Shown here in pieces: positions 1,952 through 34,628 of a stretch of DNA of 41,872 nt. Within the stretch, counting starts at the first letter, position 1, and every line of letters starts with the position of its first letter. Below the pieces are notes generated by a model. The model made no database searches. It saw only the letters and a list, made by a program, of their open reading frames with translations, and was not told where the DNA came from. Source of the stretch: Candidatus Thorarchaeota archaeon (lineage in GTDB: Archaea > Asgardarchaeota > Thorarchaeia > Thorarchaeales > Thorarchaeaceae); contig JARGGA010000002.1 of assembly GCA_029210805.1 (NCBI GenBank), positions 1 to 41,872 on the forward strand, in the 5' to 3' direction. A program made the translations under genes and the position numbers.

Positions 1952-2950
1952 TTAGTCCCCGCTCATAAGTGCCTTGAGTCGCTCCATCTCAGCAAGCATC
2001 TCTGACTGGAGGGAACTCTTTCCGCCTGGACTTGGTGCGCCTGCAGGGGCTCCGCCTCCTGGTGCGCTTCCACTTGGGGCTCCTCCTGGTGCGCCTCCAC
2101 CTGGGGGACCGCCTCCGGGGGCTCCACCGCTAGGGGGTCCGCCTCCTAGGGCTCCTCCGCTTGGGGTACCACCACCTGGTGGGCCGCCTCCTAGAACTCC
2201 TCCACCCGGTGCTCCACCGCCAGGGGGGCCGCCTCCTGGCGCTCCTCCACCCGGTGCGCCGCCACCTGGTGGGCCGCCTCCTGGGGGTCCTCCACCCGGT
2301 GGGCCAGCAGATTCAGTTCCGCCTGTGGGTACAGCGGATACTGGTGCACTGGTTCCAGCAGAACTAGGCATTCCAACACTGGTTGGTCCAGCTGCTTCAG
2401 TATCATCTTCAACTGCAGTTCCGGACATAGCTGCCATTTTACGTAGGTAATCAGAACGTGCCTTGTCAATCGCGGTGTCTGTTTCAACAATTTCCTTGAG
2501 TTGTTCGTCTTTTGCCATTGCAGCACGAACATTATCGAGTCGCGTTTGATATGTCCCAGCTATCTTGTCTCTCATGGACTCATCAATTTCACCCTGCTGT
2601 GCATAGTAATCAGTAGCAGAAAGAGCCTGTTGGATGGCGTTCTCTTCTATCTTCAAAAAGACAAGGGCATCACCAGGGTCTTTGATAAATTTCATCTTCT
2701 TAGAGCCAGCCATGCCTGCTGAAACATCTCCAGTAGATGCAATGATTTTCTGTACGCCTTCAGCGACATTGGCACTGCCCCCACCAGCTCGACGACCTCT
2801 GATGACCAGTCCTATGAGAATAAGTAACATAGGTCCAAATGTTAGAGCAAAGAACCATGCTAGTGGGCCAAAAGGAATTGTTGGCCAAAACATCTCATAT
2901 AGAGGGTAGAATAAATCATAGATAAAGGTAGTAATGTCGGTATATTGCAT
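1952..2950 (-). CDS. Membrane-anchored protein with a helical domain, about 18 (A/P)PGGG pentapeptide repeats and a C-terminal amphipathic helix
   Basis: N-terminal hydrophobic segment (PLAWFFALTFGPMLLILIGLVI followed by RGRR). A helical, charged middle region comes next, then GPPGGGPPGGGPPGGGAPGGG... and the tail SLQSEMLAEMERLKALMSGD. It is the longest ORF at this locus. The antisense ORFs 1974-2450 and 2161-2367 are by-products of the repeat. Confidence 0.7.
   Translation of the reverse strand: MQYTDITTFIYDLFYPLYEMFWPTIPFGPLAWFFALTFGPMLLILIGLVIRGRRAGGGSANVAEGVQKIIASTGDVSAGMAGSKKMKFIKDPGDALVFLKIEENAIQQALSATDYYAQQGEIDESMRDKIAGTYQTRLDNVRAAMAKDEQLKEIVETDTAIDKARSDYLRKMAAMSGTAVEDDTEAAGPTSVGMPSSAGTSAPVSAVPTGGTESAGPPGGGPPGGGPPGGGAPGGGAPGGGPPGGGAPGGGVLGGGPPGGGTPSGGALGGGPPSGGAPGGGPPGGGAPGGAPSGSAPGGGAPAGAPSPGGKSSLQSEMLAEMERLKALMSGD
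2029..2314. repeat. Imperfect 15-nt-period GC-rich coding repeat encoding XPGGG units
   Basis: Runs of ggtgcgcc/ggggctcc/ccgcctcc... with a 15-nt period. It forms a visibly GC-rich island in an AT-rich window. Confidence 0.85.
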
Positions 2951-3189
2951 CTTGTATCACCTACTGGAACGTCATCTTGGTCTACTGGTGGTGTTTCGTG
3001 TGCGCTACTTAATCTTTCTTGTAGGCATATGAGTTTGTATGACGTGTGTGTCATACGGGTCCTTGCCTGTGAACCAATCGACTCACCTGATTATTAAACT
3101 CAAGGCCTCTTAAACGTGTTCTCACTGCCATATTTCAATAGAGCTAGAGCCTAACTTAGCTTAAATCATTTGATGTATACCATTCACAG

Positions 3190-3814: not shown

Positions 3815-3849
3815 GAACACGTGTTCCAATAATGTATTACAAGTATTAC
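3815..3849 (+). promoter_or_regulatory. Composite element upstream of pan: GAACACGTGTTC palindrome plus TGTATTACAAGTATTAC motif
   Basis: Perfect 12-bp palindrome at 3815-3826 and the motif at 3833-3849. The same order and orientation recur upstream of iorA (18350-18393 on the minus strand), including the flanking caatatt. Confidence 0.6.
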
Positions 3850-3955
3850 TTTATTCCAGATCACGCGAATTCACCTTTTGACTAATAACAAGGTAGCTCG
3901 TTGACCACTAAGGATATGCTTAAGTAATTTGAGAAGGATGAAAGGTTGAGGTGTC

Positions 3956-5167
3956 ATGATGCCTGGAAGTACAGATACGAAGAAGAATGGTGAGGTAGAA
4001 GACGAAACTTACAGTCAGAGCTACACAAGACATCTTGAACGACGACTTCGTGCACTTGAAACTGAAAAACAAATACTCCAAGCAGAAAGAGGAAGACTCG
4101 AAAAGGAAACTCAGACTCTTCGTACCGAGCTTGAAAAGCTCAGACAGTCCCCACTAATTACTGCAACTATCTCTGAGATGCTAGAAGATGGTAGGGCGGT
4201 TGTCAAAAGCTCCACAGGTCCCAATTTTGTTGTTCATGTATCTTCTGGTATTTCCAAGGAAAAATTACAACCTGGTATGAGGGTTGCTCTGAATCAACGA
4301 AGCTTTGCCATTACACAAGAACTTCCACCCTCTAGAGACCCTATGATTAGAGCAATGGAAATCGAGGAGGCTCCCTCAATAGCATATTCGGACATTGGAG
4401 GCTTGCAGGATCAGCTCAGGGAGATTCGCGAAACTGTTGAGTTACCTCTTTCAAGTCCGGAGCTTTTCAAGCAGGTTGGCATTGAACCTCCAAAAGGAGT
4501 GTTACTTACTGGTCCTCCAGGTACTGGAAAGACGCTGAGTGCGAGAGCAGTTGCCCATGAAACAAATGCAACCTTCATCCGTGTAATTGGATCGGAACTT
4601 GTTCAGAAGTTTATAGGTGAGGGTGCTCGTCTTGTTCGAGAAATCTTCATGATGGCAAAGGAAAAAGCTCCATCTATTGTCTTTGTAGATGAGCTTGATG
4701 CAGTTGGTTCGCATCGATTAGATATTGCTACATCTGGAGACCGTGAGGTCCAACGAACTCTCATGCAATTACTCTCTGAACTTGATGGATTTGAAACTCG
4801 AGGACAGGTTGCGATTATTGGTGCAACTAATAGACCAGATATTCTCGATCCCGCCCTCCTTAGACCCGGCCGCTTCGATAGAATAATTGAATTCCCCTTC
4901 CCAGATGTTGATAGCCAAAAAGAAATCTTCAAGATTCATACTCGTGGAATGAACATTACCACAGGAATTAATTTCGAGAAACTTCTATCTAGCAACACGA
5001 AGCTTACTGGAGCCGATATCAAAGCGATATGTACTGAAGCAGGAATGTTTGCAATCCGAGATGGGCAGACATGTGTATCGCAGAATCATTTCCGAAAAGC
5101 GATTACCAAGGTCGAAGACAGAGGCAAAGGTAACGACGGTTCTGCTCCTTCTGGTATTTACTGCTAG
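3956..5167 (+). CDS. pan: Proteasome-activating nucleotidase (PAN, AAA+ ATPase)
   Basis: N-terminal coiled coil, an OB segment, Walker A GPPGTGKT, Walker [28 protein letters not shown], and a C-terminal HbYX-like IYC. A GAGGTG Shine-Dalgarno-like box sits at 3948-3953. The start is the ATG at 3956 or 3959. Confidence 0.95.
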
Positions 5168-5171
5168 CCAT

Positions 5172-5189
5172 TGTATTACAATAAATACA
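5172..5189 (+). promoter_or_regulatory. 18-bp motif copy TGTATTACAATAAATACA
   Basis: Lies 4 nt after the pan stop and 14-20 nt before the next start (GTG 5203 / ATG 5209). This position fits a core promoter for a leaderless or near-leaderless mRNA. Confidence 0.6.
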
Positions 5190-5202
5190 AAACATTTGTT
5201 GA

Positions 5203-6051
5203 GTGAGTATGCGGTATAAAGAATATCTCAGGAATGAGTTGGATAAGAATAACCCTGATAATCTTCCACTCCCGAAAGGTTATCATCTCATAGGACATGT
5301 TGCCCTACTAGTGTTGAATTTTGAAGACCGTGATTTTGCTACGAAAGTTGGTAAGTGTACACTTGGATATGATAGTAGAATTCGGTCTGTAGCAATCAGA
5401 ACTGGACCCACTTCAAGTGACATACGGAAACCGGTATACGAATTAATCGCTGGTCAATCAGATACACTTACCACACATATTGAAAACAATGTCAAATTCC
5501 GGATAGATCCTTTGAGGGTAACATTTTCAGGAGGTAATAGAAGGGAAAGGATTTCTCTTCCTCAGTTTGTTCAATCGCATGAATACGTTGTAGATATGTT
5601 TGCATGTGTAGGACAGTTTGGGCTTCATATTGCTAAGACTGCAGGCGCAAAAGTATTGGCTATCGAAATGAACCCTGAAGCTTATTCACTGCTGGAAGAA
5701 AATATCAGAATAAACCATGTTGAAAATAAGATGCAAGCAGTCTTTGGTGACTGTCGCAAGGTACATCCCAATGGTGTTGCAGATCGTATTATTATGGGAT
5801 ACCTTCCGGGTACAATAGACTTCCTTCCTTCAGCTTTGGATACTCTTTCTCAAGAGGGAGGGACGATTCATATCCATGACTCACTTCCTGAGAATGAAAT
5901 TGGGGATTATTGTAATACTATTAATACATTAGCATCGGAATGGGGATTTGCTTCAGTTGTTCTACCAAGAAAGATAAAGCATTACTCGCCAGGAATTTCA
6001 CATTATGTATTTGATGTATCAGTTCTGCCTAATGAAGCGTCTGAAGCATAA
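5203..6051 (+). CDS. Trm5/Taw2 (Met-10+) family SAM-dependent tRNA methyltransferase
   Basis: GYHLIGHVALL, SAM motif VVDMFACVGQFGLHIA and DRIIMGYLP. At about 280 aa it is closer to Taw2/TYW2 than to Trm5b in size. Confidence 0.8.
   Translation: MSMRYKEYLRNELDKNNPDNLPLPKGYHLIGHVALLVLNFEDRDFATKVGKCTLGYDSRIRSVAIRTGPTSSDIRKPVYELIAGQSDTLTTHIENNVKFRIDPLRVTFSGGNRRERISLPQFVQSHEYVVDMFACVGQFGLHIAKTAGAKVLAIEMNPEAYSLLEENIRINHVENKMQAVFGDCRKVHPNGVADRIIMGYLPGTIDFLPSALDTLSQEGGTIHIHDSLPENEIGDYCNTINTLASEWGFASVVLPRKIKHYSPGISHYVFDVSVLPNEASEA
5911..5928 (+). promoter_or_regulatory. Near-perfect motif copy TGTAATACTATTAATACA inside the Trm5/Taw2-like CDS
   Basis: Matches 17 of 18 positions of the copies at 8929 and 12055. 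It points toward nac, whose start is 168 nt downstream, and the true spacer 6052-6095 has no copy. Confidence 0.4.
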
Positions 6052-7665: not shown

Positions 7666-8640
7666 ATGACGATTGCAATTCATGAGTCCGCGCTCATTCG
7701 ACATTTTAACACACGTAAAGAAACGCTCCGCGCGTGGGAAGAAAATATAGGTGCACGTTTTAGCCCCTTTAGGGGTTTTAAGATGCCTGATTCGCGTCTC
7801 TACTGCGAGCATCCTGATTTTCTTGATTCTATAGTTGATCTAATCATTACTAATGAGAGACATATCTTTCTTAGAGGTCCAGTTGGATCAGGGAAGAGCA
7901 CCTTGATGCTTTTGGCATTGAGAGATTTACCTACCCTTGCAGATCGAAGAGGTAACAAATTCATAACTGGATATGTAGGCATGACAGGACTTTATGAGAA
8001 ACAGATGTCAGCAGCTATTGCTGATTCATTGAGAATCAAATATCGACGTTCTTGGGAATCTAGTCAGATTATTGATGCGGTCGCTCAGGAGAGTGTACGA
8101 AGATATATCGAGGAAAAAAGTCGTACCGCCCTCTTCATTGAGGACGTTGCTGATAACCAAGAAGCTGCGTTCCATAAGCTTCGATATTTAGCTGATTTGC
8201 CAACTGAGGAAATGAAAGATGATTATAGAACGGCACTTGATGAACCAATTGTAACACTAGTCATGAGCGGAACTAAGCTTTATTGGAATGCAATGCTTTC
8301 ATTCCTTCCACAGATAGCTGATAGAACAGAGCCATTGGACGTTCCTGCACTGGGGGATAGCAAAGCAAGGGAATTTATTGGTCGTAGGATTGCGTATGCA
8401 AAAGGAACCATCGATTCTTTCGATTCTGCCAATTACGACGTTTATCCATTTCATGACGACGCGATAACAGTACTTAACACTGCCGCAAGAGGGAACCCTC
8501 GTGACCTTCGAATGTTGGCCAGAGGGTGTCAACAAGTTGCAGCTGAAAATTTCAAACGGGCTGGTAGCCCTGATGTAGACCCAGAGATAGCTCGGCTTGT
8601 ATCAGAAGCGTATGAAACTATTCTCAAGGAGGTCAGATGA
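7666..8640 (+). CDS. AAA+ ATPase of the ExeA/TniB/ORC-like (AAA_22-type) class, with no winged-helix domain
   Basis: Walker A LRGPVGSGKSTL, Walker B-like ALFIEDVAD, and a sensor-2-like ARGNPRDLRMLARGCQQVAA. At 324 aa it ends without a C-terminal DNA-binding domain. Confidence 0.75.
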   Translation: MTIAIHESALIRHFNTRKETLRAWEENIGARFSPFRGFKMPDSRLYCEHPDFLDSIVDLIITNERHIFLRGPVGSGKSTLMLLALRDLPTLADRRGNKFITGYVGMTGLYEKQMSAAIADSLRIKYRRSWESSQIIDAVAQESVRRYIEEKSRTALFIEDVADNQEAAFHKLRYLADLPTEEMKDDYRTALDEPIVTLVMSGTKLYWNAMLSFLPQIADRTEPLDVPALGDSKAREFIGRRIAYAKGTIDSFDSANYDVYPFHDDAITVLNTAARGNPRDLRMLARGCQQVAAENFKRAGSPDVDPEIARLVSEAYETILKEVR

Positions 8641-8918
8641 TCATGAGTGTATTGGGCAAATATAGAAAGGATGAAGAACGACGGGATGATGAAGACAAAA
8701 CAACTGACACTTCACCAAAAATAGATACTGTGCCAGTTGCTGTGCCAAATAAAGAAAGAAAGAGTCCAATTATGTCGTTCAGTGTCACAACAGAACTCAG
8801 ATCCTGCCTGAAAGCTGTTAGAAACGAAAAGGCAATTAACTTGAGTATGTGGGTGGAACGCACATTGAGAAATGCTTTGTCAGAAGAATTTCCGGATATT
8901 GCAGAAGCGCATCTTTAA
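8637..8918 (+). CDS. Ribbon-helix-helix (CopG/Arc-like) DNA-binding protein with a charged disordered N-terminus
   Basis: The C-terminal MSFSVTTELRSCLKAVRNEKAINLSMWVERTLRNAL fits a beta-strand/helix/helix RHH pattern. Its start overlaps the ATPase stop in ATGA (8637-8640). Confidence 0.6.
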   Translation: MIMSVLGKYRKDEERRDDEDKTTDTSPKIDTVPVAVPNKERKSPIMSFSVTTELRSCLKAVRNEKAINLSMWVERTLRNALSEEFPDIAEAHL

Positions 8919-8928
8919 AGAGTCATCT

Positions 8929-8946
8929 TGTAATACAATTAATACA
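8929..8946 (+). promoter_or_regulatory. 18-bp motif copy TGTAATACAATTAATACA at a convergent 3' junction
   Basis: Identical 18-mer to 12055-12072. It lies 10 nt after the stop of the RHH gene and 2 nt before the stop of acdA. Confidence 0.6.
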
Positions 8947-8948
8947 AG

Positions 8949-10331
8949 CTAGATTCTTCTGTTGAGCATAGTTGCATATTCTGCGGCTTTTGTCATGCAT
9001 AGAGCTGCAAGAGCCGGATCATCGTAGCAGGGTATTCTATTCATTTCCAGCAAATCCTTCCCGGGTTTTCCAACATCACCTGCAAGCCATACACCTACTA
9101 CTGGTTTATCGGTTGCCGTTATTCTAACACCTTCCAACGTCCCCGCTGCATGTTCTGCTTGAGTCATCCCCGCGAAGGTAGGAACGGCGCATACTACTAG
9201 CAACATATCCACATTGGAGTCTTTCAGAAGAAGTTCAGTCGCGACACGATACTCCCGTCTGCCTCCGCTGGCCAAAACATCGATTGGATTGTTTATGGAT
9301 GCCATTGGTGATAGGACTTGACGTAGATCGTTATATGTTTCTTTTTCGAATTGGGGGATATTGAGACCTAGTTCTGAAGCAGCATCTGTAGCAAGTACTC
9401 CTGCTCCACCTGTATTACTAATAATACCAATATTACATCCTTTAGGTATTGGTTGATAATCAAATATCTTGCAAATTTCAAGCAGAGAATCAAGAGTAGG
9501 TGCAGACACGCATCCTGCTTGTCGCACCATGCCATCGAATACTTCAGTTGATCCGGCAAGTGATCCTGTGTGACTTTGAGTGGCCCGACCACCAATCTCA
9601 CTACGACCACCTTTTAGAACAACGACTGGCTTTTTACGAGACGCACTTTGAAGCGAGTCAAAGAATCCTCTACCATTATCAACTCCTTCTACATAGACAG
9701 CAATTGCTTTAGTTCTCTGATCATCACGGAAGTAATCAAGAACTTCTACAAAACCAACATCAGCAGCATTACCTACACTTGCGAATTTACTAACACCTAT
9801 TCTCTTCGCACGTGTGGTGTAGATGATCATTCCTCCAAGAGCTCCGCTTTGAGAAAGTAGAGCAATATTTCCACGTTCAGGCATCATAGTAAATGTGGCA
9901 TTGAAAAGACGGCTATTAGAAACTCCAACACAGTTAGGTCCAATGATACGAACTCCAGCCTGATTAGCTGCATTCACGAGAGATTCTTCAAGCTTTGCAC
10001 CTTCAGAATCTACCTCACTGAATCCACCAGAAATGACAACTGCATGGCTGGCTCCAGCCCTTTTCACCTCAGCCATTAACCCTGGGCAATATTTGGCAGC
10101 CACAGCTATGACCACCAAGTCAACTGGATTAGGTAAATCACTCAGACTTGGGTATGCCTTCACACCAAGGACATATTCGCTTGATCTGCTTATTGGATAG
10201 ATATCGATTTCCGATGTAAGAAGATTCATCAGAATTGAATTACCAAGTTTTCGATAGTCTGATGATGCACCAACAAGAGCGACTGACTTTGGATTAAAGA
10301 ACAAATCAATGGATGATTCTTGTCTGTTCAT
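8949..10331 (-). CDS. acdA: ADP-forming acetyl-CoA synthetase alpha subunit / CoA-binding succinyl-CoA-synthetase-like protein
   Basis: KSVALVGAS, IIGPNCVG, ALLSQSGALG and the phosphohistidine loop ATQSHTGSLAG. The start is trimmed to the ATG at 10331 (MNRQESS); the track extension to 10403 runs through the motif at 10394. Confidence 0.85.
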   Translation of the reverse strand: MNRQESSIDLFFNPKSVALVGASSDYRKLGNSILMNLLTSEIDIYPISRSSEYVLGVKAYPSLSDLPNPVDLVVIAVAAKYCPGLMAEVKRAGASHAVVISGGFSEVDSEGAKLEESLVNAANQAGVRIIGPNCVGVSNSRLFNATFTMMPERGNIALLSQSGALGGMIIYTTRAKRIGVSKFASVGNAADVGFVEVLDYFRDDQRTKAIAVYVEGVDNGRGFFDSLQSASRKKPVVVLKGGRSEIGGRATQSHTGSLAGSTEVFDGMVRQAGCVSAPTLDSLLEICKIFDYQPIPKGCNIGIISNTGGAGVLATDAASELGLNIPQFEKETYNDLRQVLSPMASINNPIDVLASGGRREYRVATELLLKDSNVDMLLVVCAVPTFAGMTQAEHAAGTLEGVRITATDKPVVGVWLAGDVGKPGKDLLEMNRIPCYDDPALAALCMTKAAEYATMLNRRI

Positions 10332-12073: not shown

Positions 12074-12631
12074 TTATTCAGATTCGGAATTTGTTCGTTT
12101 TTTTGAGATCTCTGATTTTAGAATCAAGGGAGAAGCCAGTTCATTTAGAGCTTCGTTAATCGATCGCTCTGCCGTTCTATAGCTCTCGATCTCCTCATTG
12201 CTTAGCTCCTCTCTGCCTGCAAGAACCTCTCTAATTCTACGATAGTCACCTATCTTCGATGCAATTTCTTCAAAAGGTCTGAAAACAGCGAAATCGAATA
12301 GGTCAAGATATGCCAGTAGCAGCATAGTATACATACATCGAGTTACATTCCGTCGCGATTGACGTAGAGTTCGATTAAATGAACCTCGAGACACGCCTCT
12401 TGTTCTGCTGGTAGATTTGCTACGAATTGTAGCCTTGTCCTCGTAGGGAACGTGATTACCAAGTTGATCTTCTACCACCAGGTCAATCAGTAGTGTTTCC
12501 AACTGTGCTTTTGTGAGTAATGATTGCTCTAGTAGAATTTTCATAATCGGTTCGTTCATGACTCTGCGTGCCCGTCTTCCTATACTTTTCATATCTCGTG
12601 GGTGCTCTGATTCTTGTAAATCCTCATTCAT
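12074..12631 (-). CDS. Putative DNA-binding protein with a sigma-70 region 4 / DUF134-like helix-turn-helix
   Basis: LTKAQLETLLIDL...RGVSRGSFNRTLRQSRRNV resembles the LT.EE.E..RL...GVSR.T..R.L..AR.K HTH pattern. The rest of the protein is helical. Confidence 0.5.
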   Translation of the reverse strand: MNEDLQESEHPRDMKSIGRRARRVMNEPIMKILLEQSLLTKAQLETLLIDLVVEDQLGNHVPYEDKATIRSKSTSRTRGVSRGSFNRTLRQSRRNVTRCMYTMLLLAYLDLFDFAVFRPFEEIASKIGDYRRIREVLAGREELSNEEIESYRTAERSINEALNELASPLILKSEISKKRTNSESE

Positions 12632-16375: not shown

Positions 16376-18268
16376 TTACTTCTCCTCCTGTTTGATTGCA
16401 CCTTGTGGACAGACGGAAACACACGTTCCACAGAAGTTACAGAGTGTTTCGTCTATTACAGCTTGTTCAGTTTCAGTGTCTTGATACATTGCAGGACAAG
16501 ACAATCGATTAAGACAACGTTTGCAGGAGTTACATACTTCGGTATCAACATAGTACTTTGGAGGGTATTCACCGCTTTTTCGCCGATCAGCGGCTGTAAG
16601 GAGAGCACATGGATCCCTTGATACAAGAACTGCAGGAGATTTATTCTCGCGAGTCCACTTGACCATCTCACGTACTTCCTTAACAAGTCCGGCCATAGAT
16701 TCGAAGGTGGTGATAGTCTTTACATACTTGATACCTAGTCCCTTGGAGACCTCTTCGATATCGAGTGGCGGAACTTCCTCTCGCATACCAGTGATCCCAG
16801 TTCCAGGATGAGGTTGATGGCCAGTCATGGCTGTTGTTCGATTATCAAGAACAACTAGACTTACTGGGTGTTTATTGTAAACGGCATTTACTAAGCCAGG
16901 GAGTGCGGAAGCAAAGAATGTACTATCCCCAACCGATGCCACAATATCTTGACCTGTTACCTGGGCAAGACCACAAGCAGTTGTAATTGATGACCCCATG
17001 TCAAAGAGAATGTCTGCTGTTTCCAGAGGGGGGGATATACTAAGAGTGTAGCATCCAATATCTGAAGGATAAATTGCCTTGCCTCTGGTTGCGGTACGAA
17101 TAGCAAAATATGATGCCCGGTGAGGACAGCCTGCGCATAGTAATGGGGGCCGAGGAGGCATCTCCGGGATTTGTTCAGATTGTTTGTCAATATCCTTCCA
17201 GTTAATACGTGTATTACGATTACTAATCTTGCCTAATGATTCTATTACGATTCGGGGGCTATATTCGCCCACTCGGGAGAAGTACCCTTGTTCTTTTCCA
17301 AGGATTTCTACACTAACTTCATTTAGTTGAGCAAGTCGTCTTGCGTGTGTTTCCAGGAATGGTTCCAGTTCTTCAACAACTACAACACGTTTGTGACGTT
17401 TAAGAAATTCAACCATGCTCTTTTCGGGAACGGGGTGAGTAATTCCAAGTTTGTAAATCTCGGTTTCTAGTTCTAAATGATCAAGTGCCTCAACTACGTA
17501 GTTGTAAGCCACTCCACTAGTAAGTATTCCGAGGTCACCATTGCCTTCAAAGAAATTGAGTGGACTGTTCTCAGCTATTTCTTTTGCTTTCTCAATCTTT
17601 GCTAGTAACTTAGGGTGCATCTTACGAGCAACCGAAGGGATAGGAACAAGTCGAAATGGGTCTTTCTCAAACTCGACAGTTTTCGGTCGTTCCTTGATAA
17701 TATCTAATACAACAGGTGCACGGGTGTGATTTACACGAGTTGTTGTTCTTAGTAGAACAGGAAGTTCTAGTTTTTCCGAGAGTTCAAAGGCATCATGAAC
17801 CATATCCTTTGCCTCAGCAGGATCTGCAGGTTCTACCATTGGCATGTTACCCATAAGTGCATAGTAACGACTATCGTTCTCATTCTGTGAGCTCCACATA
17901 CTCGGATCATCTGCAACCACAATGACCATGCCTGCACGAACTCCTATGTAGGCCAAAGAAAAGAATGGATCAGCTGCAACATTCAATCCAGGACCTTTAC
18001 ATATCATCATGGATCTTACACCAGCAACTGCCGCAGCTCCTGATACTTCAAGGGCTACTTTTTCATTAGTGCTGAATTCAAAGTAAAAGTTAGGAATGTG
18101 AGGTGCCATGAATGTTAGATTGTTTCCAATCTCACTACTCGGGGTGCCAGGATACAGTGCTACAAGTCGAACACCAGCCTCTAACACTCCTCGAGCTATT
18201 GCCTCATTAGCTAGAAGAAGCACTTTCTTCCCAGGAGTGTTTTCAAGTAGATCCTTGGGTTTGGTCAT
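16376..18268 (-). CDS. iorA: Indolepyruvate:ferredoxin oxidoreductase alpha subunit
   Basis: GNEAIARG, YPGTPSSE, a TPP-binding GDSTFFASALPGL, and a C-terminal 2x[4Fe-4S] region (CNSCKRC...CP and CNFCGTCVSVCP). The start is trimmed to the ATG at 18268, with GGAGG 5 nt upstream. The track extension to 18418 runs through the regulatory motifs. Confidence 0.92.
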   Translation of the reverse strand: MTKPKDLLENTPGKKVLLLANEAIARGVLEAGVRLVALYPGTPSSEIGNNLTFMAPHIPNFYFEFSTNEKVALEVSGAAAVAGVRSMMICKGPGLNVAADPFFSLAYIGVRAGMVIVVADDPSMWSSQNENDSRYYALMGNMPMVEPADPAEAKDMVHDAFELSEKLELPVLLRTTTRVNHTRAPVVLDIIKERPKTVEFEKDPFRLVPIPSVARKMHPKLLAKIEKAKEIAENSPLNFFEGNGDLGILTSGVAYNYVVEALDHLELETEIYKLGITHPVPEKSMVEFLKRHKRVVVVEELEPFLETHARRLAQLNEVSVEILGKEQGYFSRVGEYSPRIVIESLGKISNRNTRINWKDIDKQSEQIPEMPPRPPLLCAGCPHRASYFAIRTATRGKAIYPSDIGCYTLSISPPLETADILFDMGSSITTACGLAQVTGQDIVASVGDSTFFASALPGLVNAVYNKHPVSLVVLDNRTTAMTGHQPHPGTGITGMREEVPPLDIEEVSKGLGIKYVKTITTFESMAGLVKEVREMVKWTRENKSPAVLVSRDPCALLTAADRRKSGEYPPKYYVDTEVCNSCKRCLNRLSCPAMYQDTETEQAVIDETLCNFCGTCVSVCPQGAIKQEEK

Positions 18269-18349: not shown

Positions 18350-18393
18350 TGTATTAATTGTAATACAAGGAAATATGTTGGAACACGTGTTCC
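18350..18393 (-). promoter_or_regulatory. Composite element upstream of iorA: 18-bp motif plus the perfect 14-bp palindrome GGAACACGTGTTCC
   Basis: Motif at 18350-18367 (plus strand TGTATTAATTGTAATACA) and palindrome at 18380-18393. Further half-sites lie at 18311-18349. The reverse complement aligns with 3805-3849 upstream of pan. Confidence 0.65.
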
Positions 18394-18415
18394 AGTTAAT
18401 ATTGCCCAGCCAATA

Positions 18416-18439
18416 CACCCCTCTATTTCCACTGGAGAA
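18416..18439 (-). other. ORB-like origin recognition box with G-string (ORB-a)
   Basis: The reverse complement reads TTCTCCAGTGGAAATAGAGGGGTG. It matches the archaeal ORB core (TCCAGTGGAAA) and the downstream GGGG element. Confidence 0.6.
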
Positions 18440-18557
18440 TGAAAAATGGAGAGATTTGAGGCGGGTATTATAATAATAATGAAAAATACAGATGAATACA
18501 GACCCTTAATTACATATTTATACTTTTGTATTTTTGATCTGTGTGAATCTTAATTAT
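18440..18557. other. AT-rich core (candidate DNA unwinding element) between inverted ORB-like boxes
   Basis: A 118-bp stretch visibly richer in A/T than its flanks (ataataataatgaaaaata..., atatttatacttttgtatttttga...). No credible ORF. Confidence 0.5.
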
Positions 18558-18579
18558 TTCGAGTGGAAACAAGGGGGTT
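18557..18579 (+). other. ORB-like origin recognition box with G-string (ORB-b)
   Basis: Reads TTTCGAGTGGAAACAAGGGGGTT. It is inverted relative to ORB-a, and both G-strings are distal to the AT-rich core. Confidence 0.6.
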
Positions 18580-18590
18580 GCAATGGTCTT

Positions 18591-18604
18591 GGAACACGTG
18601 GTCG
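18591..18604. promoter_or_regulatory. Degenerate copy of the GGAACACGTGTTCC palindrome (GGAACACGTGGTCG)
   Basis: Mirrors the perfect copy at 18380-18393 on the other side of the ORB pair. Confidence 0.5.
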
Positions 18605-18613
18605 CATTTTCCA

Positions 18614-18904
18614 TTATTTTACCTCCGCAGCTACTTCATAGATTCTGAGATCTAAAATATCCGAATACTCGTCGAATAGCATATCGAACACTCCCCGGTG
18701 TTCACCAGGGACCAGAATTGCAGAATCAGCAACTGCTTTGGAACCAAGACACTCCTCGATTAGTCCAACCTTCCGTTTCTCTTTCACACCCGACTTCGTC
18801 TTCCAAGAATACGTAAACCCATAGAGCTCCTTAGTAAAAGAAACCCGTTTTGCATTTGATTGACGTGCCTGCTTACAATCATAGAGATACAGATACTCTG
18901 GCAT
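18614..18904 (-). CDS. Hypothetical small protein (96 aa)
   Basis: Trimmed to the ATG at 18904 (MPEYLYLYDCKQ...), because the track extension to 19081 crosses the divergent promoter region. The beta-alpha start (YLYLYD...AKRVSFTKELYG) vaguely recalls Cas2/VapD-like ferredoxin folds, but I would not assign it. It contains an internal GAACAC-N6-GTGTTC at 18686-18703. Confidence 0.45.
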   Translation of the reverse strand: MPEYLYLYDCKQARQSNAKRVSFTKELYGFTYSWKTKSGVKEKRKVGLIEECLGSKAVADSAILVPGEHRGVFDMLFDEYSDILDLRIYEVAAEVK

Positions 18905-18922: not shown

Positions 18923-18958
18923 AGAACACATGTTCTGAATTTTATTATGTGTAATACA
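18923..18958 (+). promoter_or_regulatory. Composite element in a divergent spacer: AGAACACATGTTCT plus TGTAATACA
   Basis: AGAACA-N2-TGTTCT at 18923-18936, 19 nt from the 18904 start. The 9-mer core lies at 18950-18958, 78 nt upstream of the 19036 start. Confidence 0.55.
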
Positions 18959-22357: not shown

Positions 22358-22407
22358 CTAGCTCTCACCATTTAGATTTTTTATCATAGGATACAACACT
22401 AATCTTG

Positions 22408-22822
22408 TTCACAATAATCTTTGTTCACACTTCAAATAAGTGTGAGTATGTGAATCATGTATATCCGGGTAAGTGGAAGATAATCCCTACATAGCTATTC
22501 AAGACTCATATCAGCTGTACATCATGTGTTCGCACCTTGTACGGAAGATATCGTCAAAAATAAGGTCTATGGGCGCTTATTTTTCAAATTAAAACCATTT
22601 TTCCTTTTACTTCAATATTCACTAAACTATGACGATTGTGAATGAATAATTTAAGATATCATAACTCTAATTGCTTGGTTCCAGTGGAAACGGAGGGGTG
22701 GCTTTATTCACAATGCTTATCGGGATTATGCTGGCTTCTTTTACATATTAGAGGTATTCTTTCAACTCTTTTTGTATGTTCATTCACAATAATGGCGCCA
22801 TTCACAACATTTCACTGTGAAT
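22408..22822. repeat. Cluster of about 10 TTCACAA/TTGTGAA repeats (iteron-like) in a 490-bp spacer
   Basis: Copies start at 22408, 22424, 22449(-), 22617, 22635(-), 22706, 22782 and 22800, with the palindrome TTCACTGTGAA at 22811-22821. Two bipartite units TTCACAATAAT-N5-TTCACA lie at 22408-22430 and 22783-22807. Confidence 0.7.
22679..22698 (+). other. ORB-like origin recognition box with G-string (ORB-c)
   Basis: Reads TTCCAGTGGAAACGGAGGGG, the best match of the three to the canonical ORB core. An AT-rich stretch lies immediately to its left (about 22575-22675). Confidence 0.55.
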
Positions 22823-22847
22823 CCTGTTAATTCGTTTTCATCTAGAA

Positions 22848-23852
22848 TTATGTAGAACATGGCAACAAGTAATCTGTACTGCTTTCTCCTAAAATAAGTT
22901 GTAGCCAGCTTCGTCCATCACGATGGTTTACTCTCTCGAGTGTCCCTCTTGTTTTTACGCACATCCCTTTGCCTACATGTTCAGTATACCGTCCTCGATA
23001 ACTTACCAGACTCACAAGATCAGGAACTCCCCGGCATTCAACTTGGTATTCACAGGGTGTGAATATTGCTTGTGAATCATCCAATATATCGCATGTTAGA
23101 ACACGTGTTCCCAGAGATTCGAATGAAAGGTCCTCATACACGAATTCCATTTCATCTGAAGTCTTTACTATTCGAATGAAAAATTCCTTATTATCGAAAA
23201 TTCCTTGAAGCAACTTGTTACTTTCAATTGAGCTGAGCGTTTTCAGATGCTGATTATTGAGCCCCCATCTAAACTGTGTATGTTGTAGTAAATGCTTCCC
23301 CGTGTACCGTTCCAACCCCGCAATCGTTTCATCGTTTTTTTTCAGACCTTGATGCAGTGTTCTACCAGCTTTTTCACCGTATACTACTAAATCAATATCA
23401 GAGCTCTCTGTTGCAAGACCAACAAGCTGTGATCCGGTAACACCAATTGCATTCCATGGAATCCCAAACGCATCAACTAACGACTCGGCCAATTCAAGGG
23501 TTGCACGTTGTAAATCACTTAGATGTCTACCCCGATCCCTAATCCTACCAAGCGCATCGATGGGACTTAGTACGAAATCTATTGAATCGAATGGTATTAC
23601 TTGTAATACACGATTATGTCTATCGTCAAACCTGAGATAGTGAGGGTAGTTCTCTCTAAGGTAGACTTCTCGGTCCTTCAATGGGTAGATCTTTTTGTAT
23701 GCTACACCGTCTTCCGAATTTCTATCCCCAGATGTATCAAATACATACCGAAGATACGCTATGTATTGATATTCTGGATGTAAATTACCTTTAATCTCAA
23801 AAATCAAACCTTCGTTTGTTATGAGGAAGTAGCCTTCGATTGGATTATCCAT
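22848..23852 (-). CDS. Pol-beta-superfamily nucleotidyltransferase (archaeal predicted NTase with a C-terminal beta-rich domain)
   Basis: Carries the NTase signature GVTGSQLVGLATESSDIDLVVYG. The start is trimmed to the ATG at 23852 (MDNPIEGYF). Confidence 0.65.
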   Translation of the reverse strand: MDNPIEGYFLITNEGLIFEIKGNLHPEYQYIAYLRYVFDTSGDRNSEDGVAYKKIYPLKDREVYLRENYPHYLRFDDRHNRVLQVIPFDSIDFVLSPIDALGRIRDRGRHLSDLQRATLELAESLVDAFGIPWNAIGVTGSQLVGLATESSDIDLVVYGEKAGRTLHQGLKKNDETIAGLERYTGKHLLQHTQFRWGLNNQHLKTLSSIESNKLLQGIFDNKEFFIRIVKTSDEMEFVYEDLSFESLGTRVLTCDILDDSQAIFTPCEYQVECRGVPDLVSLVSYRGRYTEHVGKGMCVKTRGTLERVNHRDGRSWLQLILGESSTDYLLPCST

Positions 23853-34550: not shown

Positions 34551-34628
34551 TGGTGCTCCGGCCGGGATTCGAACCCGGGTCGGGGAATCGAGAACCCCCC
34601 ATGCTTGGCCGGACTACACTACCGGAGC
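34551..34628 (-). tRNA. tRNA-Glu (anticodon CUC), CCA encoded
   Basis: The reverse complement is GCTCCGGTAGTGTAGTCCGGCCAAGCATGGGGGGTTCTCGATTCCCCGACCCGGGTTCGAATCCCGGCCGGAGCACCA. It folds as a cloverleaf with a 7-bp acceptor stem, the anticodon loop TTCTCGA and the T-loop TTCGAAT. It closely resembles archaeal tRNA-Glu. Confidence 0.93.

Follow-up and report, generated by a model that had tools for sequence, protein, structure and literature searches.

The contig JARGGA010000002.1 of Candidatus Thorarchaeota archaeon, an Asgard archaeon, is complete at 41,872 bp (41.9 kb), and the window analysed here is this entire contig. Its archaeal genes include those for a proteasome-activating ATPase, the A/V-type ATPase subunit D, TFB, ribosomal protein S10 and HypF. 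The element under study, which resembles a chromosomal replication origin, occupies the intergenic region between iorA and a small open reading frame (ORF), orf96, both on the minus strand. Two inverted origin recognition boxes (ORBs), the predicted binding sites of the initiator Orc1/Cdc6, enclose an AT-rich spacer there and are themselves flanked by copies of the palindrome GAACACGTGTTC. A second, motif-rich module lies 4.1 kb from the ORB pair, next to a gene designated orf210 (Table 1). The best match of iorA is 94% identical and about 38 further Thorarchaeota genomes follow at 71–81%, giving a comparison set for the ORB pair of 39 Thorarchaeota genomes (iorA identity 71–94%), and the gene order of about 20 kb around the pair is kept in nearly all of these relatives. 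In the genome sequence CP070658.1, the pair is located at about 1,807,500.

Table 1 Features at and around the ORB pair (window positions, unless a locus is named; nt, nucleotides; aa, amino acids)
Feature	Position	Strand	Remark
P-loop protein, 324 aa	7666-8640	+	Weak AAA_22 / AAA_16 matches; GNPRDIRML sensor-like motif
93-aa ORF overlapping the P-loop protein	8637-8918	+	
orf185 family	12074-12631	-	Counterparts: L083 2773-3426 and L197 4525-4971
iorA, then iorB	16376-18268	-	Flanking gene on the ORB-R side; not an initiator
Palindrome GGAACACGTGTTCC, iorA side	18380-18393		25 nt outside the ORB-R G-string; cassette-inversion breakpoint
ORB-R TTCTCCAGTGGAAATAGAGGGGTG, predicted Orc1/Cdc6 binding site	18416-18439	-	Kept in 39 genomes
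AT-rich spacer, predicted duplex unwinding element, 117 bp	18440-18556		Spacer length, AT content, duplex stability
Conserved inner block GAAAAATGGAGAGA	18441-18454		In the spacer
Conserved inner block GGCGGGT	18460-18466		In the spacer
Conserved inner block AAAATACAGAT	18483-18493		In the spacer; the contig's variant of ATCTCCATTTT (reverse complement)
BRE/TATA-like block ATATTTATACTTT	18514-18526		In the spacer
ORB-L TTTCGAGTGGAAACAAGGGGGTT, predicted Orc1/Cdc6 binding site	18557-18579	+	Inverted relative to ORB-R; kept in 39 genomes
Palindrome GGAACACGTGGTCG, one mismatch	18591-18604		14 nt outside the ORB-L G-string; fixed-distance copy; cassette-inversion breakpoint
orf96, 96 aa, small Thorarchaeota-only protein, Cas2-like ferredoxin fold	18614-18904	-	Bracketed by two palindromes; homologue search, AlphaFold model and fold search
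Third conserved palindrome AGAACACATGTTCT	18923-18936		Divergent orf96 / AlaDH-like promoter region
orf210, N-terminal ferredoxin-like domain and C-terminal winged helix	21725-22357	-	Homologue of the ORF abutting Bathyarchaeial orc1-linked origins
orf210 homologues	L197 8771-9196, L198 8752-9180, L199 8768-9196, L083 4571-4993	-	
Distal origin module, motif-rich intergenic region, 490 bp	22358-22847		ATTCACA boxes at 22449, 22637, 22706, 22782, 22800 and 22816, and invariant blocks
ORB-c composite: GGTTCCAGTGGAAACGGAGGGGTG, 5 nt, ATTCACA	22677-22712	+	ORB-c itself 22677-22701
TGTAWTACA	3833, 5172, 7625, 8929, 10394, 11726, 12055, 13261, 13851, 14940, 15736, 18359, 18950, 23602		

A preliminary description of this DNA, made from its letters alone, had reported two inverted ORB words with outward-facing G-strings, and both can be read directly in the sequence as ORB-R and ORB-L; the spacer, which it had put at 118 bp, measures 117 bp. 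Both copies match the Orc1/Cdc6 recognition consensus, composed of the dyad core TCCAGTGGAAA and a G-string. The exact core AGTGGAAAYNNNGGGG occurs three times in the contig, against 0.00 copies expected, the third being the perfect-core copy ORB-c in the distal module, which the preliminary description did not contain. The majority ORB core of Thorarchaeota, TTCCAGTGGAAATGAA, is identical to ORB1 of Pyrococcus furiosus, which is bound by Cdc6 in vitro, and ORB-R of the contig matches it at 13 of 16 bases. A scan of 744,186 bp of Thorarchaeota sequence for the ORB word, allowing up to two mismatches, gave matches almost solely on three syntenic sites. Two of them form the inverted pair upstream of iorA, and the third is about 4.1 kb distant, flanked by orf210 and a nucleotidyltransferase-like gene. 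The few extra matches, each with two mismatches, adjoin the pair. The word is thus few and clustered, as the preliminary description had expected of an origin, with 744 kb holding essentially only the pair and one further syntenic site.

The arrangement is also conserved in its dimensions. The two ORB core patterns stand 125 ± 2 bp apart in 39/39 genomes carrying both, with a mean AT content of 70% between them, and the least stable 100-bp duplex of the whole contig (18465-18564) lies in the spacer, which agrees with the proposal that the AT-rich core serves as an unwinding element. All 39 cassettes become collinear once oriented by their inner motifs, among which are the conserved spacer blocks ATCTCCATTTT and AAAGTATAAATAG. 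The order is palindrome, 13–14 nt, ORB-L, about 35 nt, AAAGTATAAATAG (resembling the B recognition element (BRE) and TATA box), GTTT..AGCTG and TTATCTCCATTTTT, followed by an AT-rich stretch, CCCGCTG, CTCCATTTT, ORB-R, 10–79 nt and the second palindrome. The inverted words might instead be the stem of a structured RNA or of a DNA hairpin, since the arms form a 20-nt inverted repeat with 80% complementarity. Compensatory changes were not found in the arms, whose variable positions show an identity about equal to the expectation, and Rfam gave no match at the ORB pair, its sole match on the contig being a tRNA (34554-34628). The positions TC.A..GGAAA....GGGGT are invariant in both arms across the 39 genomes, and the two arms of one genome have on average 8.2 differences over 27 positions, the variable positions changing independently, indicating that the arms are two protein-binding sites and not a hairpin, for which we see a negligible chance.

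Outside the ORBs lies the palindrome layer, which the preliminary description had singled out as unusual and which proved real and conserved. Its copies at 18380-18393 and 18591-18604, described as perfect and degenerate, respectively, are as stated, the latter deviating by a single mismatch. In the contig, GAACAC-N0-8-GTGTTC is present in 4 copies against 0.01 expected. Two further GAACAC repeats had been proposed: the one at 18923-18936 is conserved, and the one at 18686-18703 (GAACAC-N6-GTGTTC) is not part of the module, because it lies inside orf96 and is absent from 40/40 related loci. Nearly all Thorarchaeota loci have a counterpart of the iorA-side palindrome, with no more than one mismatch, at the syntenic position. 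Together, the Thorarchaeota loci contain 129 copies of GAACACGTGTTC at this stringency, of which 123 are concentrated in the 850 bp upstream of iorA, where their density is enriched 430-fold. The suggestion that the two palindrome spacings differ by one helical turn does not hold in general: the gap to the ORB-L G-string is 13–14 nt in 35/39 genomes, and the gap on the ORB-R side ranges from 10 to 79 nt. Two further perfect copies of GAACACGTGTTC lie elsewhere on the contig, one at 3815-3826, about 130 nt upstream of the proteasome-activating ATPase gene, and one at 23099-23110, inside the nucleotidyltransferase-like ORF, where the locus L001 has it as well. The 9-bp palindrome TGTAWTACA often follows GAACACGTGTTC, three copies lying 6–14 nt from a GAACACGTGTTC box. 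It occurs 14 times on the contig against 0.47 expected, mostly between genes and always within 3.8–23.6 kb, and may serve in promoters or be recognized by an abundant DNA-binding protein. The palindrome-ORB composite had no match in viral contigs, and the idea that it derives from a mobile element was rejected on this ground.

The palindromes also delimit a segment that has been inverted during evolution. Between the close relatives L028 and L031, the inverted piece is exactly the segment between the two flanking palindromes, and the breakpoints of the cassette inversion fall inside them. On the iorA tree, the cassette orientation switched at least 4 times relative to its neighbours, with no loss of any element from the cassette. 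A bidirectional origin should show such independence from the orientation of its neighbours, whereas a gene-specific operator should not. The locus could also be read as an inverton, that is, a promoter-bearing segment flipped by a recombinase that switches the expression of iorAB or orf96. The inversion between close relatives with breakpoints in the palindromes, the repeated flips with both orientations among species and the BRE/TATA-like block inside the segment all agree with this reading. However, the inverted segment is more diverged than its flanks (80% versus 90%), so that the flip is not a fast phase switch, and the conserved 20 kb contain no recombinase gene. An inverton would further leave the canonical ORBs with their G-strings, the homology to orc1-linked origins and the skew switch described below unexplained, and inversion is compatible with origin function in any case. 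We therefore consider an inverton very improbable indeed.

We reconstructed orc1-linked origins of Bathyarchaeia (loci L083 and L197–L199), and these resemble the Thorarchaeota locus in both of its modules. In Thorarchaeota, ORB-c belongs to a composite (TCCAnnGGAAACGAAGGGGTG, 5 nt, ATTCACA) that is present in the contig and in 29/29 loci reaching that place. Directly beside ORB-c, the 100-bp window 22576-22675 ranks as the third least stable on the contig, and 9 of the 26 ATTCACA copies of the contig are concentrated within 22449-23077. Two blocks of the distal module are invariant across Thorarchaeota: AAATAAGTGTGAGTATGTGAAT (about 22434-22455) and ATTCACAAnAAnGGCGCCATTCACA-N9-TGTGAAT (22782-22822). 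The winged helix of orf210 is homologous to a 140–142-aa ORF beside the Bathyarchaeial origin (hhalign probability 97.5%, E 7.6e-12), and in both groups TTCACA boxes and an ORB lie upstream of this family. No Pfam family was found for orf210. As a relative of WhiP or Cdt1 it had weak matches only, to PadR, LmrR, RTP and ORC winged helices, all with E >0.05, in searches with a model of moderate quality (predicted local distance difference test score, pLDDT, 64.6). The orf210 family is thus a candidate origin-associated DNA-binding protein family, and orf210 is a better candidate than orf96 for binding the TTCACA boxes. The distal module probably has an auxiliary or regulatory role.

We then evaluated strand asymmetry by a regression of the GC skew at third codon positions (GC3 skew), with gene strand and side of the ORB pair as predictors. 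In the contig, the coefficient for side was -0.133 ± 0.020, and that for gene strand was 0.028 ± 0.020. To the right of the ORB pair, 16/16 genes had C>G on the plus strand, and to the left 11/17 had G>C. The skew check proposed in the preliminary description hence gave a positive result: the strand-corrected skew changes sign exactly at the ORB pair, with the same contrast in 29/30 related genomes, although with inverted sign. The change point of the pooled skew is the boundary between orf96 and iorA, that is, the ORB pair and not ORB-c. Inverted gene blocks in L038, L028 and L031 keep the skew sign of their position, indicating that the asymmetry is positional and not intrinsic to the genes. 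At ORB control loci from metagenomes, which have short flanks, the results were mixed. One of them, the low-GC contig L099 with a canonical ORB at 3946 next to orc1 (4226-5488), has a GC3 skew of +0.19 on the left and -0.15 on the right (z = -4.5), inverted as in Thorarchaeota, on flanks of only 3.5 kb.

The skew switch is a replication landmark. Skew alone does not separate origin from terminus here, because the polarity is inverted, as in haloarchaea, whose experimentally verified origins have a documented inverted polarity and a C-rich leading strand. For forks that start at the ORB pair, the leading strands would likewise be C-rich, the reverse of the rule for bacteria. Conversely, the G-rich top strand on the left and C-rich one on the right would fit a terminus, or a zone of fork convergence, under the bacterial and thermophilic-archaeal convention, and the palindromes, being recombination breakpoints, might then be dif-like or fork-arrest sites. 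Against this, inverted canonical ORBs around the least stable duplex are the defining anatomy of an origin, and the same two modules adjoin orc1 in Bathyarchaeia. The 20-kb synteny is exceptionally conserved, and strong synteny is typical of origin-proximal and not of terminus regions in Sulfolobus and Thermococcales genomes. An Xer/dif site is 28 bp long, with two arms of about 11 bp and a 6-bp spacer, and is present as a single copy near the terminus; the palindrome here has far shorter arms, spans 12–16 bp without an asymmetric spacer, is present in 3–4 copies and also occurs in promoters elsewhere, and the assignment as an Xer/dif site was rejected. A terminus is accordingly quite improbable, and the ORB anatomy argues that the skew landmark is an origin.

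Archaeal origins typically, though not by strict definition, adjoin the gene of their initiator (orc1/cdc6 or whiP). The preliminary description had remarked that no such gene is adjacent, and the wider search agrees with it. The entire contig encodes no Cdc6 domain, and a hidden Markov model (HMM) of Orc1/Cdc6 built from ten Pfam-verified proteins matched no ORF in the contig or within ±10 kb in 40 Thorarchaeota loci. A P-loop protein and the overlapping 93-aa ORF were considered as a split or divergent Orc1/Cdc6 and rejected, as a search of PDB profiles matched P-loops only; for the P-loop protein by itself, hhalign against the Orc1 profile gave a probability of 26.7%, confined to the Walker A region. 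These two proteins are 80–97% identical across Thorarchaeota, more conserved than iorA.

The lack of a linked initiator gene is one of the points that would suit a site that is not an active origin, namely a conserved operator of the Orc1 family, or a dormant origin, that regulates iorAB, orf96 and the AlaDH-like operon. Palindromes, each with a nearby TGTAWTACA, lie upstream of the iorA, AlaDH-like and proteasome ATPase genes in the manner of transcription-factor sites, and the spacer contains the BRE/TATA-like block. Published accounts also describe Orc1 paralogues that regulate transcription in Sulfolobales and dormant origins in haloarchaea. Yet a purely regulatory site would leave the positional GC3-skew switch in 29/30 genomes unexplained, a gene-specific operator or promoter should not tolerate at least 4 flips without the loss of an element, and the fixed 125-bp spacing with its duplex-stability minimum fits an unwinding element. 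A regulatory or dormant site is, on balance, unlikely.

Taken together, the distribution of the ORBs, the skew and the melting profile support the origin interpretation of the preliminary description. We conclude, with a probability of roughly 80%, that the Thorarchaeota genome has the core of an ORB-type (oriC1-like) chromosomal replication origin at 18380-18604; a terminus, a regulatory or dormant site, an inverton and a structured RNA are all less likely than an origin. By the match to experimentally bound ORBs, two Orc1/Cdc6 monomers would bind the inverted ORBs in opposite polarity, bracketing the spacer of about 125 bp, where the DNA of the contig melts most easily. MCM might then be recruited to the spacer, by analogy with Sulfolobus oriC1, and forks would leave both ways. 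We propose that such bidirectional firing is why the strand composition switches exactly at the ORB pair. The palindromes presumably bind a dimeric factor. Such a factor might work together with Orc1 or serve as an insulator of the origin, and might act at some promoters as well. The second module, 4.1 kb away beside a winged-helix gene, corresponds to the distal module of the Bathyarchaeial orc1-linked origins. The initiator gene would lie elsewhere in the genome and hence must act in trans.

Several points weigh against this interpretation. Binding by Orc1 and firing of the origin are what we infer, and the flanks, 18 kb to one side and 23 kb to the other, carry no orc1/cdc6 gene. Bacterial convention reads the polarity of the skew as a terminus and not as an origin, and gene orientation is unbiased, with 49% of coding bases co-oriented with forks leaving the ORB pair. 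The three Bathyarchaeial orc1 loci that served as control origins lack a clear skew switch, and the method has no calibration from a close outgroup. Further ORB clusters, for example beside orc1, may exist in Thorarchaeota genomes beyond the 744,186 bp that the scan covered.

A more elaborate and tentative version of the origin model can be put forward as a possibility, in which the origin is uncoupled from its initiator gene and served by a lineage-specific accessory system. A dimeric factor on GAACACGTGTTC would sit beside Orc1, 13–14 nt from the G-string, and set the ends of the invertible cassette, and a winged-helix protein of the orf210 family, shared with Bathyarchaeia, would act on the TTCACA boxes at the second ORB module. 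This version also assumes a C-rich leading strand in this Asgard lineage; if that is true, Asgard origin calls placed at the cumulative GC-skew minimum would point at termini.

Of the neighbouring genes, orf96 has 139 homologues, all in Thorarchaeota and all without names. Its AlphaFold model is confident (pLDDT 90.6) and has Cas2 as the best fold match (E 0.019). The fold search returned no match to UBP, the accessory protein of Sulfolobus oriC1, leaving orf96 without support as a UBP-like or classical DNA-binding protein. At the locus L008, orf96 and the origin cassette are separated by an inserted 442-aa gene (8189-9517), whose C-terminus is methyltransferase-like by a sequence motif only. 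The orf185 family, for which a weak match to DUF134 is the only one, lies a few kb from the ORB origin in Thorarchaeota and Bathyarchaeia alike, and its members in the two groups are homologous (phmmer E 3e-27 in a 17-sequence set; tblastn 43% identity). Elsewhere on the contig, positions 2001-3000 have 54% G+C versus about 41% in the remainder, and a 332-aa ORF at 1952-2950 (minus strand) had no Pfam or NCBIfam match. A scan of the contig for sigma-70 promoters and intrinsic terminators is uninformative for archaea.

No known prokaryotes are more closely related to eukaryotes than the Asgard archaea, whose replication proteins have received close study. We found no published description of origin DNA elements in this group; a survey of the Asgard replisome makes no mention of ORBs, and published Asgard origin calls rest on cumulative GC skew. 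The locus provides a concrete, phylum-wide candidate for the Thorarchaeota origin with defined predicted protein-binding sites, and it indicates that an origin is separable from its initiator gene. It also yields new accessory candidates, a palindrome-binding factor and the orf210 winged-helix family common to Bathyarchaeia. If the site is an origin, the skew polarity is inverted here, so Asgard origin calls made from skew minima may be wrong.

Among known systems, oriC1 of Sulfolobus and Saccharolobus likewise has inverted ORBs that flank an AT-rich duplex unwinding element (DUE), with a third ORB further out. It is a unit of about 130 bp (ORB3-DUE-ORB2), in which each ORB binds one Orc1 (Orc1-1) monomer with defined polarity and both ORBs are essential. 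In contrast to the Thorarchaeota origin, which has no linked initiator gene, Sulfolobus oriC1 lies directly upstream of orc1-1. Its additional short motif, ucm, is needed for origin function and is bound by the accessory protein UBP. Whereas ucm is located within the DUE and UBP binds it as a monomer, the extra motif in Thorarchaeota is a palindrome of 12–14 bp outside the ORBs, 13–14 nt from one G-string. Cassette inversion, which is seen in Thorarchaeota, is not reported for Sulfolobus.

The oriC of Pyrococcus and other Thermococcales shares its ORB core with the Thorarchaeota consensus, as described above, and consists of inverted ORB1 and ORB2 and an ORB3 cluster in dp1. As here, two ORB clusters lie within about 5 kb; those of Thermococcales are bound by Cdc6/Orc1 in vivo and their layout is order-wide. 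The gene between the clusters is cdc6/orc1 in Thermococcales, whereas orf96, the AlaDH-like gene, a saccharopine-dehydrogenase-like gene and orf210 separate them here. In Pyrococcus, the distance between core and G-string is 6 nt longer than in Thorarchaeota, and mini-ORBs, which are many in Pyrococcus, are not evident at the Thorarchaeota locus. Haloarchaeal oriC1 and other orc-linked origins resemble the locus in their inverted ORBs ending in a G-string and in the inverted skew polarity. In haloarchaea, firing is enhanced by accessory repeats beside the ORBs, and there is an origin under the control of a distal ORB cluster; these repeats differ from the Thorarchaeota motifs in sequence and position, and all mapped haloarchaeal origins adjoin cdc6/orc1, unlike the Thorarchaeota locus. 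The haloarchaeal OapABC proteins were considered as counterparts and set aside, as they belong to unrelated families (GTPase, DUF2073 and DUF2072).

The ORB word itself extends to loci that carry the initiator gene. A metagenome scan for the Thorarchaeota word returned at least 120 loci, and 30 of the 120 listed carry orc1/cdc6, either Pfam-verified or detected by HMM. In these 30, gene and word share the same, often short, fragment, and the gene was near the word in every case checked. The Bathyarchaeial origins show this coupling together with the likeness in architecture. As in Thorarchaeota, an AT-rich spacer is enclosed by two inverted ORBs that point outward, in this case beside orc1. 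A third ORB followed by 6 nt and TTCACA is the counterpart of the ORB-c composite and is accompanied by TTCACA box clusters (5–6 copies versus 0.6–0.8 expected), a divergently placed orf210 homologue and a nearby orf185 homologue. The GAACACGTGTTC palindromes and the clear skew switch are absent from Bathyarchaeia and present in Thorarchaeota. In Bathyarchaeia, about 270 bp separate the two modules, which abut orc1, itself followed by the PolD small-subunit gene; in Thorarchaeota, the distance is 4.1 kb and orc1 is absent. Thus, orc1 is gone from the Thorarchaeota locus, which has retained both modules of an orc1-linked origin and the neighbouring winged-helix gene.

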